Shown here piece by piece: positions 1,226 through 63,583 of a stretch of DNA of 64,000 bases; position 1 is the stretch's first letter; each line of letters starts with the position of its first letter. The DNA is taken from the NCBI GenBank assembly GCA_038062955.1, contig JBBTWE010000001.1, positions 554,271 through 618,270 of the forward strand, written 5' to 3'. This DNA is from Patescibacteria group bacterium (GTDB taxonomy: Bacteria; Patescibacteriota; Minisyncoccia; Phycocordibacterales; BOKC01). Position numbers and translations under genes: made by a program. The notes below the pieces were generated by a model. The model saw nothing but the letters and a program-made list of their open reading frames with translations, was not told where the DNA came from and searched no databases.

Positions 1226-1663
1226 ATGCCTAATCTAATCCAAAACCGAAAAGCCCATTTTGACTATGAATTCCTTGAGAAAATCGAGAGCGGTATTGAG
1301 CTACATGGTTTTGAGGTGAAAGCGTTAAGAGAAAGCAAAGGGCGCTTGGATGGCGCATATGTAGTAACTCGTGGTGGCGAATCTTTTATTGTAAATTTTC
1401 ATATTTCTCCGTACCAACCAGGAAATACTCCAAAAGGCTACGATCCAGACCGAGTAAAAAAACTACTTTTAACTAAAAAAGAAATAGCCCATATTGCCGG
1501 CTTCGAAAAGCGTAAAGGCTTGACAATTGTGCCTATTTCGGTATATACTAAGAAGAGTAAGATCAAGATTGAACTCGCAATCGCAAAGGGAAAGAAAAAA
1601 TTTGATAAGCGAGAAACGCTTAAAAAGAGAGACGCGGAAAGAGACATGAGGAGGGATATGTAA
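1226..1663 (+). CDS. smpB: SsrA-binding protein SmpB
   Basis: 145 aa. N-terminus (NRKAHFDYEFLEKIESGIELHGFEVKALR) is typical of SmpB. Immediately upstream of tmRNA. Confidence 0.9.
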   Translation: MPNLIQNRKAHFDYEFLEKIESGIELHGFEVKALRESKGRLDGAYVVTRGGESFIVNFHISPYQPGNTPKGYDPDRVKKLLLTKKEIAHIAGFEKRKGLTIVPISVYTKKSKIKIELAIAKGKKKFDKRETLKKRDAERDMRRDM

Positions 1664-57438: not shown

Positions 57439-57676
57439 TAATTAGAAATAAAAAAACAATTTTTTAGACCTTTTTAAACAGACTAAATGACCAGAATAAC
57501 CTTAAGGGACTGCTTTTTGTCTTTAAATACACATTTCCACAGACTTATCCACAGTTCCTAAACAAACTTTTTAGATTAAATTTTTCAAAGAGGGCTTATT
57601 TTATAAACTTTCCAAAAAAATTATTTTTAATTTATACCTTAATATTGCCTAATCAATATTTTTAAGGACATTTTTT

Positions 57677-57803
57677 GGTGCGGGTGCCGGGAATCGACCG
57701 TTACTCGGTCAGTCCCCTTGTTGGATAAATTTTCGTTTTTCAAACTCAAATTTATGCTCAACAAGGCTTCGATTCCCTGAAAAAGTGCTTCCGAGCACTT
57801 TTT
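57677..57803 (-). other. tRNA-linked composite structured element, copy 2, downstream of tRNA-Gly(GCC)
   Basis: Minus-strand: tRNA-Gly, then GAACGAAGTGA, then hairpin AAAAGTGCTCGGAAGCACTTTT, then 90-nt element (GGGAATCGA...TCGATTCCC), then GGCACCCGCACCA. The last 22 of 24 nt match the tRNA-Gly(GCC) 3' end GGTTCGATTCCCGGTACCCGCAC. Confidence 0.6.
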
Positions 57804-57835
57804 CTACCCTTTCTAATTTCACTTCGTTCAATTTG

Positions 57836-58029: not shown

Positions 58030-58295
58030 TCAAGAACAAGTTTTGGGACAGTTATGTGTCTCACCAATCTGAAACTTTGCGCCGCAGAGATTGCAGATCT
58101 GTAGTGGAAGCATATGTCCTGTCATGAATATTGCACCACAACAATCGCAGCCATAAGCGGTGGCATCATCCCACAAGTCACGGCTCCCACACTTCATGCA
58201 CCTACCAGTAAAGTGTCCTGTGGGCAAATTGTTAGGATTATTAGTCATCTGAAGCTGGGCCAGTTCATTCACGTCTGTGATTGGTGTCTTCATTA
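58030..58295 (-). CDS. Small Cys-rich (10 Cys) zinc-ribbon-like protein, GC-rich
   Basis: GAGAGG RBS then ATG (MKTPITDV...). CxxC...CxCC...CxxC...CxxxC pattern. GC about 50% against AT-rich flanks. Confidence 0.45.
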
Positions 58296-58396
58296 TTTCC
58301 TCTCTTTTGAAAGAACAGAGATATTGGTAGTTTTGAGAGACACACCAATAATCTATTTTCATACTCGCATACAAACACCAAGAGGTCAAAATTTTG

Positions 58397-58539: not shown

Positions 58540-60006
58540 ATGAAATTTGAAATTCCAAAAGAAATTTTGAGCATCTCTCAAAAAATAAAAGAAGCTGGAT
58601 TTGAGGCTTATTTAGTTGGCGGATGTGTCAGAGATTTAATTTTAGGCAAAAAGCCTAAGGATTGGGATTTTGCAACTAATGCTAAACCGGAAGATATAGT
58701 TTTACTTTTTACGAAGACTTTTTATGAGAACGAATACGGCACGGTTGGAATAGTAAACGAGGGTGTTTCAGATGAAACCTTAAAAATCGTCGAAATAACT
58801 CCTTTCAGAACAGAATCAGAATATTCAGATTCAAGACGACCCGACAAAGTAAGTTTTGGAGCAACACTTGAAGAAGATCTGAAAAGACGTGACTTTACAA
58901 TCAATGCAATAGCCCTAGATGCTGATAAAGGACATTTATACGATCCACATAAAGGACAAGAAGATATAAAGGACAGAATTATAAAAACTGTTGGAGATCC
59001 TAGAGTAAGATTTGGAGAAGACGGTCTACGAATATTACGAGCAATTAGGTTTAATGCCGAGCTTGGTTTCATGATTAACGAGGAGACAAGTCAAGCAATA
59101 AAAGCCCGCGCTTCCCTACTTCAAAATATATCTAAAGAGAGAATAAGGGATGAATTTATTAAGATCATCATGTCTGATCGTCCGATGGAAAGTATTATTT
59201 TAAGCCAAGAATTAGGAATCTTAAAGATTATAATCCCGGATTTAGAATCGACAATTGGAATAGAACAGAACCAAGCCCACTCTTTCGATGTTTGGCTTCA
59301 TCTACTGAAGTCCTTAAATCATGCGGTCAAGAAAAAAATGTCTCTAGATTTACGTTTGGCGGCCTTATTCCACGATATTTCTAAGCCGGAAACCAGAAGA
59401 TGGTCACCCGAAAAGAAAGATTGGACATTCTATGGCCACGACGTAGTCGGCGCCAAAAGAGCCGTCAAAATCCTTAAAGATTTGAGGTTTTCAAACGATT
59501 TAATAGAAAAAGTAGAGAAGTTAGTCAGATGGCATATGTTTTTCTCTGATACTGAACAAATTACTCTTTCGGCCGTTAGAAGGCTCATTGTTAACGTTGG
59601 AAAAGAAAACATTTGGGATCTAATGAACGTGAGAATTTGCGATAGGATAGGCACCGGTAGGCCCAAAGAAAGCCCTTACAGGCTAAGAAAGTACCGTTCT
59701 ATGATTGACGAAGTGTTAACAGACCCAATATCCGTAGGAATGTTAAAAGTGGATGGTGGTAAAGTTATACGTGTAACCAAACTGTCTCCAGGACCAAAAA
59801 TTGGTTATATTCTTCATGCTCTACTAGAAGAAGTACTGGAAGATCCGAGTTTAAACACCGAAGAATACTTAGAAACCAAAGCACTTAAATTAGCTGAATT
59901 GCCTGAAAACGAATTAAAAATTCTAGGAGAAAAGGCCAAAGAAAAGAAAGAATTGGAAACGGAAAAGAAAATAACCGAGATTCGTGATAAGCATTGGGTT
60001 AAGTAG
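58540..60006 (+). CDS. cca: CCA tRNA nucleotidyltransferase (PolyA-pol head plus HD domain)
   Basis: GGCVRDLILGKKPKDWDFAT and RDFTINA motifs. C-terminal HD-like region. Confidence 0.8.
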   Translation: MKFEIPKEILSISQKIKEAGFEAYLVGGCVRDLILGKKPKDWDFATNAKPEDIVLLFTKTFYENEYGTVGIVNEGVSDETLKIVEITPFRTESEYSDSRRPDKVSFGATLEEDLKRRDFTINAIALDADKGHLYDPHKGQEDIKDRIIKTVGDPRVRFGEDGLRILRAIRFNAELGFMINEETSQAIKARASLLQNISKERIRDEFIKIIMSDRPMESIILSQELGILKIIIPDLESTIGIEQNQAHSFDVWLHLLKSLNHAVKKKMSLDLRLAALFHDISKPETRRWSPEKKDWTFYGHDVVGAKRAVKILKDLRFSNDLIEKVEKLVRWHMFFSDTEQITLSAVRRLIVNVGKENIWDLMNVRICDRIGTGRPKESPYRLRKYRSMIDEVLTDPISVGMLKVDGGKVIRVTKLSPGPKIGYILHALLEEVLEDPSLNTEEYLETKALKLAELPENELKILGEKAKEKKELETEKKITEIRDKHWVK

Positions 60007-60087
60007 CAGATAACACTAATTTGTAATTTTAGGTATTTTAGCCAAAAATTATAGTTTCATAAGAAACAATTAATGCACTCAATTTAC

Positions 60088-60122
60088 CTATTAGGTTTAG
60101 ACATTATCAACAAAACTGGTAT
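60088..60122 (+). promoter_or_regulatory. Strong sigma70-type promoter with extended -10
   Basis: TTAGAC, 17 nt, TGG-TATAAT. Confidence 0.5.
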
Positions 60123-60124
60123 AA

Positions 60125-60290
60125 TTTTTGGAATCTTTTAGAAGATAATTATTCAAAAGAAAGCGATATTTTGTGATTTTCTTGGTTTTATACAGATAAC
60201 CCAACCATCTAGTTTAATCTAATACTTTAGAGCTAAAATAGAAAATACGTTTCATGAATAACCGCCAAGCGCGGTTATTTTATTATTAGC
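60125..60290 (+). ncRNA. Candidate small RNA between promoter and terminator
   Basis: Promoter at 60088-60122, then about 160 nt with no ORF, then terminator ATAACCGC-caag-GCGGTTAT followed by TTT at about 60262-60290. Confidence 0.3.
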
Positions 60291-60479
60291 TCGAACCGAA
60301 ACACGATCTTCAAGTTTAGAAAAATTTAAAAATTATTTTTTGACTTTTTTTTTAAATTAAGATGCAAATAATTTTTAGTGGTGTTGGTTACTATTTAACT
60401 TTTTAGATGTTTCATAAGAAACTTTTTGAGTTTTTATAAATTTGAAACTTTTTGACAAAACTTTTTTATATTGGGAAAT

Positions 60480-60900
60480 TAAATTTAGAAAAAATTTGGA
60501 AACGAAAAGTCCACATCGAGCAGAGGGCTTGACATGGACTTCGGAGCGATCGGAAATAATCAGAGAGATAACCTACCACTAGTTTTAGTTTATTTGTGGA
60601 TGGTTGGTAGTTATCTATCGGACATTTCTTCCTGCTTAATGGAGACCCTTTGGTGTCTCCTGAGAAGAACAAATATCCTCAAACACTCGAGAGGACATCT
60701 GACACTATTATACATGAATATTATAAAGGACAAAAACTGTCTGTGGATAACCCCCACACCTATCAAGACATCTCGAGAGATTTTTTAAAAAATTATGATT
60801 TTAAGCTAGATTTCAGGCTAAATTTTGGATATTTCCCGAATTGTGGTCTCGCAGAAAAATCCATGCCTTGATAGGTATGGGGGATAACTGTCCTTTATAA
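60480..60900. other. Structured non-coding region with nested long inverted repeats
   Basis: GATAACCCCCACACCTATCAAG / CTTGATAGGTATGGGGGATAAC (about 23-bp arms, 105 nt apart), GGAGACC...GGTGTCTCC, AAGTCCA...TGGACTT. No credible ORF. Confidence 0.3.
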
Positions 60901-60911
60901 TTTAAGATTGA

Positions 60912-61694
60912 CTAAATTTTGATTTTTAAAGAGATAGGACAATGATCCGAACCATATATTTTACTTAGAATTTCAGTCGAAACCAGATGAGGAATTGTTT
61001 CTTTACTTACAAAAAAATAATCTATTCTCCATCCGACGTTTCTTTCTCTAGCAAAAGTTTTCATATCCCAGTATGTGTATGTATCTTTCAGATTAGGAAA
61101 ATAATACCGAAAAACATCAACATACCCCTTATTTACCAACGTATCGATCCATGCCCTTTCTTCTGGCAAAAAACCTGTGTTTTTGGAATTTTCTTTTGGC
61201 CTAGCTAGATCTATTTCTTTGTGAGCAGTATTTATATCTCCACAGAAAATAATATTTTTATATTTTTTTCTTAATTTTTCAACAAATTTTAAAAAAATTT
61301 CATAAAATTCAAGTTTATACTTTAGTCTAATTGGCCCACCTCCACCATTAGGGAAGTAAACATTTAAAAGAACAAAATCCTTATAATAGGCCGTTATTAA
61401 GCGTCCTTCTTGATCAAATTCTTTACTATCCATACCTTCTTTTACACTTTCTGGCTTTTCCTTAGAATAAATAGCAACACCGCTGTAGCCTTTTCTGCCT
61501 TTGGAGTGATCAAAAAAACTGTAGTAACCTTTTGGATTTCTTACTTCTTCTGGGAGCTGTTCTGGCAAACTTTTAGTTTCTTGAAGACAGAGAATATCTG
61601 GATTTGCAGAAATGATTTCTGTAAAACAACCTTTTTTATGGCAGGCTCGAAGTCCGTTTACATTCCATGAGATTATGTTGAGGTTTTTTTCCAT
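60912..61694 (-). CDS. xth: Exodeoxyribonuclease III
   Basis: ISWNVNGLRA, CLQETK, GDINTAH, SDHCPI motifs. Confidence 0.85.
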   Translation of the reverse strand: MEKNLNIISWNVNGLRACHKKGCFTEIISANPDILCLQETKSLPEQLPEEVRNPKGYYSFFDHSKGRKGYSGVAIYSKEKPESVKEGMDSKEFDQEGRLITAYYKDFVLLNVYFPNGGGGPIRLKYKLEFYEIFLKFVEKLRKKYKNIIFCGDINTAHKEIDLARPKENSKNTGFLPEERAWIDTLVNKGYVDVFRYYFPNLKDTYTYWDMKTFARERNVGWRIDYFFVSKETIPHLVSTEILSKIYGSDHCPISLKIKI

Positions 61695-62010
61695 TTGACC
61701 CAGTCTCAAAAATAACCTCTAGTAATAAAGTTATAAACGCTTGAACAACCAAATGTCCAAATTTCGGCAAAAAACCAAGTTTCGACAGTCACCTTACTAT
61801 AAGTAGGTTTCCTGTCTCATCCTTGATTTTTTCCTTCGAAATTTTGCCATTTGTTTAGTTCATTATTTTTGAGACTGGCTCTTAATTCTACTTTTATCTC
61901 CCAAATATTCCAAATAATCTTGACCCTTAAAAAGCCTGAATTTCTGGCTTTTATAGCCCATTGGAGCATAAGACTGGTCAAAAAAATTGTTTTATGATAA
62001 AATGGGAGCC

Positions 62011-62280
62011 ATGTTAGCTAAAACCAAAAAACAAAAAATCATCAAGCTTGTTAAAGTTCATGATACAGACACAGGATCTCCAGAGGTTCAAGTTGCAGTT
62101 TTGACCAAAAGAATTGAAGAACTATCAAAACATTTAAAGAAAAACACCACGGATAAGCATTCGAGGAGAGGGCTTTTAGGATTGGTAGCCAAAAGACAGA
62201 AACAAATGAACTATCTTCTCAAAAGTAGCCCTCGAAGATTTAATTCTTTAGTTAAAAAGTTAGAACTCAAGAAGAAGTAG
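62011..62280 (+). CDS. rpsO: 30S ribosomal protein S15
   Basis: TKKQKIIK...DTGSPEVQVA...HSRRGLLGLVAKRQKQMNYL. Confidence 0.85.
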   Translation: MLAKTKKQKIIKLVKVHDTDTGSPEVQVAVLTKRIEELSKHLKKNTTDKHSRRGLLGLVAKRQKQMNYLLKSSPRRFNSLVKKLELKKK

Positions 62281-62466
62281 AACTTTCACATTCGGCGTAT
62301 CTCTGCGTTACTTCGCTCCGAGCCTCCCTCAACGTATTATTAAATACGTCTCGGTACGGTTCTGATTTCTACACCATAGAAATCATGTCGGGAGATTTTT
62401 TATCACGAAGTGATATAAAATTTCCGACTCGCTCGCGCCTTGATCTGCATCCGAATCTGAAAGTTC
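62280..62466. mobile_element. MITE-like element overlapping rpsO stop
   Basis: TIR GAACTTTCACATTCGG / CCGAATCTGAAAGTTC. Module content near-identical to the 50371 copy. Confidence 0.65.
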
Positions 62467-62477
62467 TATAAGAAACT

Positions 62478-62646: not shown

Positions 62647-63222
62647 ATGGCAGTCATTAAACACGCTGATCAAAAAGTAGGGGTCTTTATAGATTCTCAA
62701 AATCTCTATCATAGCGCTAAAAACTTATATAAATCTAAGGTTAATTTTGGGCAAGTTTTAAAAGATGCTGTGGCAGACAGGCTCCTAATCAGGGCCATAG
62801 CTTATGTTATAACGACAGAATCTGGCGAAGAAAAAGCTTTTTTTGAAGCTCTGGTTAAGTTAGGAATAGAGACCAAGACAAAAAATCTTCAAGTATTTTT
62901 TGGTGGCGCCAAAAAAGGGGATTGGGACGTAGGAATAGCAGTAGATGCTATAAAATTTGCTCCGAAGCTTGATACAATCATATTAGCCTCCGGAGATGGG
63001 GATTTTGTTCCTCTAGTAGAATATTTAAAAGTTAACCAAGGATGCCAAGTGGAAGTCGTTGCTTTTGGACGTTCGTCGTCAAGTCGTTTGATAGAAGCCG
63101 CAGATGATTTTACCGATTTAGATAAAAATCCTAAAAAATACTTAATTTCCCGAAATCCTGTGAGACCAGGAAAACAATCACCTAAAAATAAACCAATTCC
63201 TCCTTTAGAAATCAAAAGCTAA
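62647..63222 (+). CDS. NYN-domain (LabA-like, PIN-related) protein
   Basis: VFIDSQNLY...ILASGDGDF. Confidence 0.7.
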   Translation: MAVIKHADQKVGVFIDSQNLYHSAKNLYKSKVNFGQVLKDAVADRLLIRAIAYVITTESGEEKAFFEALVKLGIETKTKNLQVFFGGAKKGDWDVGIAVDAIKFAPKLDTIILASGDGDFVPLVEYLKVNQGCQVEVVAFGRSSSSRLIEAADDFTDLDKNPKKYLISRNPVRPGKQSPKNKPIPPLEIKS

Positions 63223-63301: not shown

Positions 63302-63454
63302 TTGACTGGAACACTATAAATAATATACAATTGGGTACTAATGGTTCGCCCGCAAGGCGAGCCAAATTTTTTAGAAAAATAAGACGCAAAGCGACTATAT
63401 TTTTCTTAACCCTAAATAAGGTGTTCTAGAAATTAATCGCTTATTACAAAATTA

Positions 63455-63575
63455 GAACTTTCAGATTTGAGACAAGTTTGTTGGAAAAACTGAGCACCGA
63501 AACAAGACGTATTTAATAATACGATGAAGTGAGGAGCGGAAGTTTTTACGACAAAATTGGCCGAATGTGAAAGTT
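63455..63575. mobile_element. MITE-like element upstream of nusA
   Basis: TIR GAACTTTCAGATTTGAG / CCGAATGTGAAAGTT. GACGTATTTAATAATACG palindrome module. Confidence 0.6.
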
Positions 63576-63583
63576 ATAACATC

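Follow-up and report, generated by a model that had tools for sequence, protein, structure and literature searches.

A predicted origin-adjacent control region downstream of cca in Paceibacterota, with a DnaA-box/A-box promoter and a candidate structured RNA

This study concerns the gap between cca (58540-60006, plus strand; PolyA_pol, RNA-binding and HD domains) and a convergent Exo_endo_phos/ExoIII-like nuclease gene (60912-61709, minus strand) in a Patescibacteria group bacterium, together with its counterparts in Paceibacterota. The window analyzed is the whole 64,000-nucleotide (nt) stretch of contig JBBTWE010000001.1 (assembly GCA_038062955.1, positions 554,271 to 618,270 of the forward strand), and coordinates are those of the window unless stated otherwise. 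The evidence leans, modestly, towards an origin-adjacent non-coding control region in which copies of a motif here called the A box, accompanied by a DnaA box, form a promoter that would drive a structured RNA from the minus strand. At 905 nt, the gap is the longest non-coding one in the window (median gap 99 nt), which bears out the original prediction, made from the letters alone, of a long convergent region effectively free of open reading frames (ORFs). Mechanical translation gives ORFs of 84 amino acids (60534-60788, plus strand), 73 amino acids (plus strand) and 68 amino acids (minus strand), none with a Pfam match. Similarity among relatives in this region switches reading frames and occurs on both strands, so the region is effectively non-coding; a small conserved minus-strand protein was rejected on the same grounds, since cross-locus matches change frame and fall on both strands. 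The segment at 60500-60900 has 31-43% guanine plus cytosine (GC), as had also been predicted, versus 18-24% over 60300-60500, and 60480-60910 folds better than shuffles on either strand (z = -4.6 on the plus strand, -7.1 on the minus strand).

The gap was compared with about 160 Paceibacterota loci (79 genome loci and 80 metagenome loci), found via the cca protein, in Paceibacterota/Parcubacteria genomes and groundwater metagenome contigs. The cca proteins of these relatives are 56-68% identical to that of the window. The window itself is identical to part of CAYIIC010000001.1 (703,865 bp; GCA_964363395.1; 11,354 bases checked, 0 mismatches; contig coordinate = window coordinate + 556,561), and an exact-protein look-up found the same population only (100% and 99.94% identical). 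Because the closest cca relatives are at most 68% identical and the remaining matches come from the same population, fine-scale footprinting is impossible. Across the 79 genome loci, the median length of the gap downstream of cca is 447 nt. The gene that follows is usually again the nuclease gene in convergent orientation, and synteny of the region holds over 160 loci. A single locus, L002, has ordinary sequence similarity to the gap of the window (nhmmer E = 2.6e-7).

Box motifs, promoter and candidate RNA

About half of the loci have a perfect DnaA box (TGTGGATAA when read in the direction of cca) within 1 kb downstream of cca. It stands at the same downstream place in 73 of 140 relatives, versus 3 matches in 244 strand scans of 122 control stretches. 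The A box is the 9-mer TAAAGGACA; copies lie at -22 and -12 from the downstream DnaA box, and an inverted copy is often found at +10. Both orientations of the A box are seen, phased at 11 nt, and a downstream region holds a mean of 2.3 copies, versus 0.025 in a control stretch. Perfect DnaA and A boxes are limited to two zones, -1800 to -4000 and +200 to +600 from the cca stop, with none between +800 and +4000. The DnaA box of the upstream cluster has the orientation opposite to that of the downstream one, and the two-zone confinement was reproduced in the 80 metagenome loci.

The window follows the same pattern. The 64 kb contain five perfect A boxes, all within 58926-60897, and the only two perfect DnaA boxes lie at 57545 and 60742. 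The second of these, TTATCCACA (60742-60750, minus strand), is a predicted site by sequence match and is accompanied by a perfect A box, TAAAGGACA, at 60724-60732 on the plus strand. Altogether the 900 nt of the gap contain one perfect DnaA box, one with one mismatch and seven with two mismatches, which places it at the 98th percentile for the window. Three perfect A boxes are found inside the cca coding sequence (58926-58975, plus strand), in two reading frames within 50 nt. In the relatives, the Lys-Gly pair at the A-box site in cca is encoded by AAAGGA in 114 of 130 cases, versus 46 of 254 elsewhere in cca; this fixation implies that the A box within the gene is kept by selection on the DNA motif. 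A DnaA-like box inside cca (CGATCCACA) was set aside as specific to the window (1 of 44).

For 67 distinct relatives, the stretch from the cca stop to the DnaA box was scored for sigma70-type sites. A score of 11 or more was reached on the minus strand in 28% of them, versus 1% of shuffles, and on the plus strand in none; 46 distinct sequences had a minus-strand site scoring at least 10. The -35 element begins either 17-18 or 27-28 nt past the start of TTATCCACA, giving two classes one helical turn apart, with the DnaA box upstream by one turn or by two. In the relatives the proximal A box, read as its reverse complement GTCC-TTTACA, forms the -35; a second A box fills the 16-18 nt spacer, and the -10 is TATAAT, TATACT, TACAAT or TAAAAT. 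This architecture is present in about two thirds of relatives; in one of them, L071, the scanning tool confirms TTTACA-16-TGnTATAAT. In the window the minus-strand promoter, TCCACA-16-TATAAT (60747-60707), has 10 of 12 matches. Its -35 (60747-60742) overlaps the DnaA box and its -10 (60725-60720) is made by the A box. A second TATAAT follows at 60712-60707, and its spacing to CAGAUGUCC equals the spacing of the relatives' -10 to CAGAU. As far as the sequence tells, the minus-strand promoter most likely drives a structured small RNA.

The candidate RNA is about 210 nt long (60713 to 60497, minus strand), contains CAGAUGUCC near its 5' end and GUUCUU at about +50, and folds with z = -4.76. Four hairpins are predicted; the last (60541-60507) has a 15-pair stem and, with the UUUUCGUUUCC that follows it, makes up the putative terminator at 60496-60541. 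L002 keeps the U-tract UUUUCGUUUCC, and its terminator stem still pairs through two changes on both sides; the window RNA and L002 also have in common GUUCUUC, AAUGUCCGAUA and an A-rich loop block. Across the relatives, the sequences predicted to be transcribed start with ...CAGAU..., and GUUCUU stands at +46 to +60 from the -10 in most sequences examined. Minus-strand hairpins with T-run terminators were found in 41 of 46, typically 210-390 nt downstream of the promoter, and the initial 200 nt are more stably folded than their shuffled versions (mean z = -2.6, p = 2e-10). In subfamily A, of which eight members were aligned, six helices have 95.4% of cells paired. Thirteen pairs are changed on both sides, versus 7.6 +/- 1.6 in shuffles (0 of 500 reach this number) and 0-3 when the pairing partners are slid, and several pairs are G-U on the minus strand. 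The original prediction had held that the gap likely encodes non-coding RNA. An RNA is indeed probable, on the minus strand (60713 to 60497) and not on the strand then proposed, with a promoter conserved class-wide and a terminator kept in L002.

Two further observations concern the hairpins. The hairpin after GUUCUU is a perfect palindrome in L006 (5753-5822), L007 (4019-4088), L010 (1755-1824) and L027 (5625-5694), and the centres of such palindromes are themselves 4-6 bp palindromes resembling restriction targets (CTGCAG, TGTACA, TGGCCA/GGCC, CTCGAG, TACGTA; 8 of 8 examined). In the window, ATAACCTACCACT (60569-60581) matches the 12-mer DnaA box of Thermotoga maritima, AAACCTACCACC, at 10 of 12 positions and has an inverted partner at 60601-60615. 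Together they make up the longest hairpin stem in the predicted minus-strand RNA; this may be a coincidence.

The neighboring gene serves tRNA maturation, and the RNA might in principle be a very divergent ribonuclease P (RNase P) RNA, 6S RNA or signal recognition particle (SRP) RNA encoded next to cca. Subfamily A does have a closing helix, a large internal loop and a terminal stem, and by eye some relatives show loose RNase P-like motifs (e.g. GCAAAACUCCCCUGAGG in group C). Searches with Rfam 15 (4227 families) nevertheless gave no match in the gap at the gathering score, and only tRNAs in 34 related loci; over the 64-kb window and these 34 loci, the gathering threshold returned only tRNAs and transfer-messenger RNA (tmRNA). 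At E up to 10 the gap yielded only chance-level matches and locus L060 one chance match, and no model of the RNase P, 6S or SRP families reached E = 10 on the window or L060, nor did anything reach the gathering score in the 34 loci. The RNAs vary from about 210 to 390 nt without a shared core, and P4-type long-range pairing is, by eye, absent from the window RNA. A housekeeping RNA of this kind is thus very improbable. Within the window, GAAAAGTCC and AAAGAAC resemble the conserved regions I and V of RNase P RNA; this idea was rejected because their pairing is local, in the terminator stem, and because there is no covariance-model match and the order of elements is wrong.

Replication-origin signals around cca

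The original prediction missed the replication-origin neighborhood, with its DnaA boxes, parS-like sites and AT-rich tract, which is the main context of the gap. GC skew at third codon positions (GC3 skew) was computed for the top strand and split by gene strand, so that the direction of transcription cannot mimic the signal; genes were called mechanically. In the 79 genomes it is -0.12 (plus-strand genes) and -0.14 (minus-strand genes) to the left of cca and +0.03 and +0.05, respectively, to the right (p = 6e-8 and 1e-15), and the 80 metagenome loci agree. When the two sides are paired locus by locus, the skew is higher on the right in 90 of 107 (p = 4e-14). A change from negative to positive GC skew is the polarity of an origin. 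In this genome GC3 skew passes from -0.08 (65 genes) to +0.04 (13 genes; p = 0.02), and the cumulative GC skew, taken over 73 kb by extending the window with its source contig, has its minimum at 57-58 kb. The pooled raw skew in the relatives changes sign just upstream of the cca start.

The minimum coincides with the third-longest gap of the window (57439-57834), which holds an upstream, or left, module at 57519-57553 on the plus strand. The module consists of a degenerate inverted A box, ATTTCCACA and a perfect TTATCCACA, the tandem boxes occupying 57533-57553. Its class-wide consensus, TGTCCTTTA-TACACA-TATCCACAG-ag-TTATCCACA, amounts to tandem DnaA boxes plus an inverted A box, and 75 of 93 relatives have the perfect box. 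An AT-rich stretch (57556-57675, 19.2% GC) directly adjoins the tandem boxes on their 3' side and is the sixth lowest in GC among the 120-nt stretches of the window. The R1 box of E. coli is oriented toward the unwinding element, and by analogy the boxes of both modules point at adjacent AT-rich DNA. Judged from these sequence signals, the cca locus can be placed with high confidence at or next to a replication origin in Paceibacterota. The left module (57519-57675) is likely the better candidate for the unwinding site, and the 905-nt gap is the putative right-hand module, about 3 kb from the left one. No dnaA gene was found within 5 kb on either side of cca in 160 loci, nor within -57/+13 kb here. 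DnaA-trios, defined as three or more 3'-NAN-5' repeats within 16 bp of a DnaA box (PMC8287927), were sought by eye, and no clear run of at least three was seen within 16 bp of the box at 57545 or 60742, by a criterion that is very permissive in AT-rich DNA.

Several observations weigh against a DnaA-box/A-box promoter driving a minus-strand RNA. Only 52% of relatives have the downstream DnaA box. The promoter of the window reaches only 10 of 12 matches, and its A box gives the -10 and not the -35, so its register is unlike that of the relatives. The skew switch is nearer the upstream module, about 2-3 kb to the left of the gap. L002, the sole alignable relative, has a weak consensus fold on either strand (-9 kcal/mol), and mean predicted stability across the relatives is strand-neutral (-44.7 vs -44.8). 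RNAs of different subfamilies could not be aligned past the promoter and GUUCUU, and MAFFT with RNAalifold recovered no common structure from group E plus the window; MAFFT misaligns the hairpins of group E by 1-2 columns, and RNAalifold gave no pairs. Many hairpins of the relatives are perfect DNA palindromes with palindromic centres (GGCC, TGCA, TCGA, ACGT), which fits a role at the DNA level at least as well as a role as RNA. Finally, the two sets of loci are not fully independent, as certain metagenome loci appear identical to genome loci where the two were compared.

A purely DNA-level explanation is a serious rival, though we consider it rather unlikely. The gap would then be the right half of a bipartite oriC, where DnaA and an A-box protein loop the two clusters together and no functional RNA is made. 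With similarly low probability, the AT-rich tract at 60300-60490 would be a second or alternative unwinding element, and the promoter signals would reflect transcriptional activation of the origin or arise as by-products of the A boxes. B. subtilis and H. pylori provide established cases of bipartite origins and of distal DnaA boxes that act through DNA loops (PMC6669920). Here, two clusters with DnaA boxes in opposite orientation flank cca, the nine DnaA-like boxes with at most two mismatches put the gap at its high percentile, and the A boxes occur in both orientations with their 11-nt phasing. The tract has 17-20% GC and four AACTTTTT repeats, and includes the fourth most AT-rich 120-nt stretch of the window (60324-60443, 16.7% GC). 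The 12-mer AACTTTTTAGAT occurs in the window only in this tract (60397) and in the upstream module (57565). Hairpins that are perfect palindromes and fold equally on both strands also suit this explanation. Protein sites alone, however, leave unexplained the well-spaced -10, the CAGAU, the GUUCUU at a fixed distance and the terminator. The covariation with G-U pairs in subfamily A also speaks against this explanation. The gap has a single perfect DnaA box with no trio run beside it by eye, and the skew switches on the other side of cca.

The lineage-specific segment, the inverted repeat and other features

Relative to L002, the window has about 490 extra bases between cca and the terminator of the minus-strand RNA. 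They hold two parS-like 14-mers, a plus-strand promoter and terminator, and the AT-rich AACTTTTT tract. The plus-strand promoter, TAGACA-16-TGgTATAAT (60098-60125; 11 of 12 matches, preceded by TG), is the single best sigma70-like site in the 64 kb, both strands scanned, and a DnaA-box-like TTATCAACA with one mismatch (60104-60112, plus strand) lies within its spacer. An intrinsic terminator, GAATAACCGCC...GGCGGTTATT with a T-run (60256-60287, plus strand), has a 10-pair stem at 60256-60280. The promoter and the clean terminator stand as originally described, and between them a plus-strand small RNA of about 155 nt may be encoded (60132-60290, fold z = -2.4). A promoter and a Rho-independent terminator on the same strand were thus found for both the minus-strand and the plus-strand unit; conservation of the transcription unit in the relatives was found for the former and not for the latter. 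The plus-strand unit is absent from L002, the closest alignable relative, and none of the 67 distinct relatives has a plus-strand sigma70 site scoring at least 11 between the cca stop and the DnaA box. The predicted small RNA therefore keeps its exceptional promoter score and its reality as sequence, but without comparable promoters in the relatives it is best regarded as a lineage-specific candidate. In the comparison with relatives that the original prediction had called for, the minus-strand promoter is conserved, the plus-strand unit is not, covariation is found in subfamily A, and the L002 consensus fold is weak on either strand. A structured plus-strand RNA shared with L002 was rejected, the consensus fold being just -9 kcal/mol on either strand.

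The 14-mer GTTTCATAAGAAAC is repeated exactly at 60054-60067 and 60409-60422. The original prediction had recognized this repeat and gave its copies at 60410 and 60049, the latter position being about 6 nt off. With up to two mismatches, GTTTCATAAGAAAC gives 8 matches versus 1.4 expected. It is also found in more than 10 related loci and is a recurrent variant of a GTTTC-N4-GAAAC site, of which 111 and 146 were counted in the two locus sets, nearly all at or to the left of cca. Of the first 79 relatives, 11 contain perfect parS cores (GTTTCACGTGAAAC). The three copies in the window differ from the 16-bp parS palindrome TGTTNCACGTGAAACA at 3-4 positions, mostly central, and the GTTTC-N4-GAAAC sites of the window are best called parS-like. 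No parAB genes were seen among the window ORFs checked. The 355-nt segment between the exact GTTTCATAAGAAAC copies (60054-60422) has no counterpart in L002, where one inverted copy of the 14-mer stands directly after the cca stop; the segment may be an insertion or duplication between parS-like sites.

Upstream of the minus-strand promoter lies an inverted repeat (60748-60901; arms 60720-60771 and 60863-60901). Its main arms (60748-60771 / 60863-60886) are 24 nt long and 88% complementary, and perfect 13-nt outer arms (60720-60732 / 60889-60901) extend it, in agreement with the long inverted repeats first reported from the sequence. The distal arm contains a DnaA-like TTATCCCCC (60879-60887, minus strand, by sequence match) and an inverted A box (60889-60897); in the proximal arm, 13 extra bases create the perfect DnaA box as the sequence reads. 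Because the repeat is upstream of the minus-strand promoter and its arms consist of an A box and a DnaA-like box, it is to be read as a duplicated A-box/DnaA-box module, a putative regulatory or structural DNA element, and not as the RNA helices it had been taken for.

The original prediction as a whole, a plus-strand small RNA (60132-60290) and, beyond it on the same strand, a structured RNA made of the inverted-repeat helices, or else a decayed mobile element, appears improbable. It draws on the best promoter of the window and its clean terminator, on the plus-strand fold of 60480-60910 (z = -4.6) and on the absence from L002 of the 355-nt segment between exact 14-nt direct repeats, which is the only hint of a mobile element. 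There is, however, no plus-strand promoter ahead of the structured part, the relatives offer none of comparable score (0 of 67), and the minus strand folds better (z = -7.1). The arm motifs occur in both orientations and so behave as double-stranded DNA sites. As to a mobile-element remnant, no transposase or other Pfam domain was detected, blastn found no match in 72,556 plasmids or 50,697 phages, and the region keeps its synteny in the 160 loci. The proposed Rfam search of the gap likewise returned no family at the gathering score.

Elsewhere in the window, the genes between 16 and 56 kb are nearly all on the minus strand, and to the right of the nuclease gene follow rpsO, an NYN-domain gene, nusA and more plus-strand genes. 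A small Cys-rich ORF without a Pfam match (58030-58300, minus strand) lies between tRNA-Gly and tRNA-Arg, in the stretch that the two origin modules enclose. Few other sites in the window reach a sigma70 score of 11; one of them, TTGACA-18-TATACT at 1520 (1520-1555, plus strand), precedes the tmRNA gene detected with Rfam (1731-2127) by about 180 nt. Two copies of a long hairpin element, 62278-62468 and 63453-63578, stand on either side of the NYN-domain gene (62647-63222), with arms TAGAACTTTCACATTCGG / CCGAATCTGAAAGTTCTA and TAGAACTTTCAGATT ... GCCGAATGTGAAAGTTATA. The two intergenic gaps that hold them are both long (366 and 310 nt) and have no Rfam match, and a 40-nt inverted repeat (62329-62368 / 63488-63527) is located in the same neighborhood.

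Proposed mechanism and comparison with known systems

We infer transcription, regulators and any role in replication from the features described above, and the following mechanism is conditional on them. DnaA, through its box, and a predicted A-box-binding protein would set the output of the minus-strand promoter. The A box is found beside the tandem DnaA boxes at the skew switch as well, and it persists in the cca coding sequence; with the motif at the origin, in cca and at the promoter, one factor could couple the state of the origin to expression of the RNA. The inverted repeat, as an inverted duplicate of the A-box/DnaA-box module, might give extra operator sites or a cruciform. The minus-strand RNA would run from about 60713 to 60497, carry the conserved GUUCUU in its 5' part and end at the hairpin and U-tract. 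This lineage would have gained about 490 nt between cca and the RNA terminator, where a strong plus-strand promoter may make a terminated transcript of about 155 nt.

A wider proposal is offered tentatively. The origin of Paceibacterota may be unlinked from dnaA, wrapped around cca and organized by an A-box operator, and the A box may also form the DnaA-box-governed promoter of a class-wide RNA absent from Rfam, which could act as an origin-coupled RNA regulator or as a priming or licensing RNA. The elements are of known kinds; what is new is their combination, namely a candidate origin apart from dnaA and around cca, a shared operator motif and an unclassified RNA. A literature search found no description of origins in the candidate phyla radiation (CPR)/Patescibacteria, of the A box or of the RNA, and to our knowledge there is almost no experimental knowledge of how replication starts in these bacteria. 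If the proposal is true, it provides a testable class-wide origin map, in which tandem DnaA boxes and an AT-rich tract precede cca and a second module follows it. Two further gains would be a new DNA motif that can serve to isolate its binding protein and a new conserved non-coding RNA with a promoter wired to DnaA. The motif pair would mark the origin in fragmented metagenome-assembled genomes, aiding coverage-based estimates of growth rate and assembly checks.

The arrangement resembles several known systems. Similar to incAB/incC of Bacillus subtilis and oriC1/oriC2 of Helicobacter pylori, two DnaA-box clusters with a gene between them lie at a GC-skew switch, and one cluster, here the left one, consists of tandem boxes directly before an AT-rich stretch. 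In contrast to that type, which flanks dnaA, the clusters here flank two tRNA genes, a small ORF and cca; the right cluster has one perfect box, an extra 9-bp A box outnumbers the DnaA boxes, and the origin is a candidate only. The upstream module, with tandem boxes in the same orientation and the better one proximal to the AT-rich stretch, is also reminiscent of the basal unwinding system (PMC8287927), from which it differs in that no convincing trio run was seen by eye; A boxes, moreover, occupy the flanks of the downstream box. The parS-like sites recall ParB centromere sites in their palindromic GTTTC/GAAAC arms and in the clustering of several copies at an origin-proximal locus, whereas the copies of the window have 3-4 mismatches to the 16-mer TGTTNCACGTGAAACA.

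The mioC, gidA and dnaA promoters of E. coli are DnaA-box-controlled promoters next to origins. The promoters described here share with them a DnaA box at or upstream of a sigma70 promoter by oriC and a short transcript near an AT-rich region, and the plus-strand promoter has a DnaA-like box in its spacer. They differ in that the product would apparently be a terminated non-coding RNA and not an mRNA, that the promoter is built from a repeated operator-like motif, and that control by DnaA is suggested only by the position of the box and by helical phasing (17-18 or 27-28 nt). The predicted RNA also has the features of intrinsically terminated bacterial small RNAs, namely a promoter of its own, a length of 200-400 nt, stem-loops, a Rho-independent terminator and a position between convergent genes; unlike them, it matches none of the Rfam 15 families, and only its promoter, its first bases and GUUCUU are conserved in sequence.

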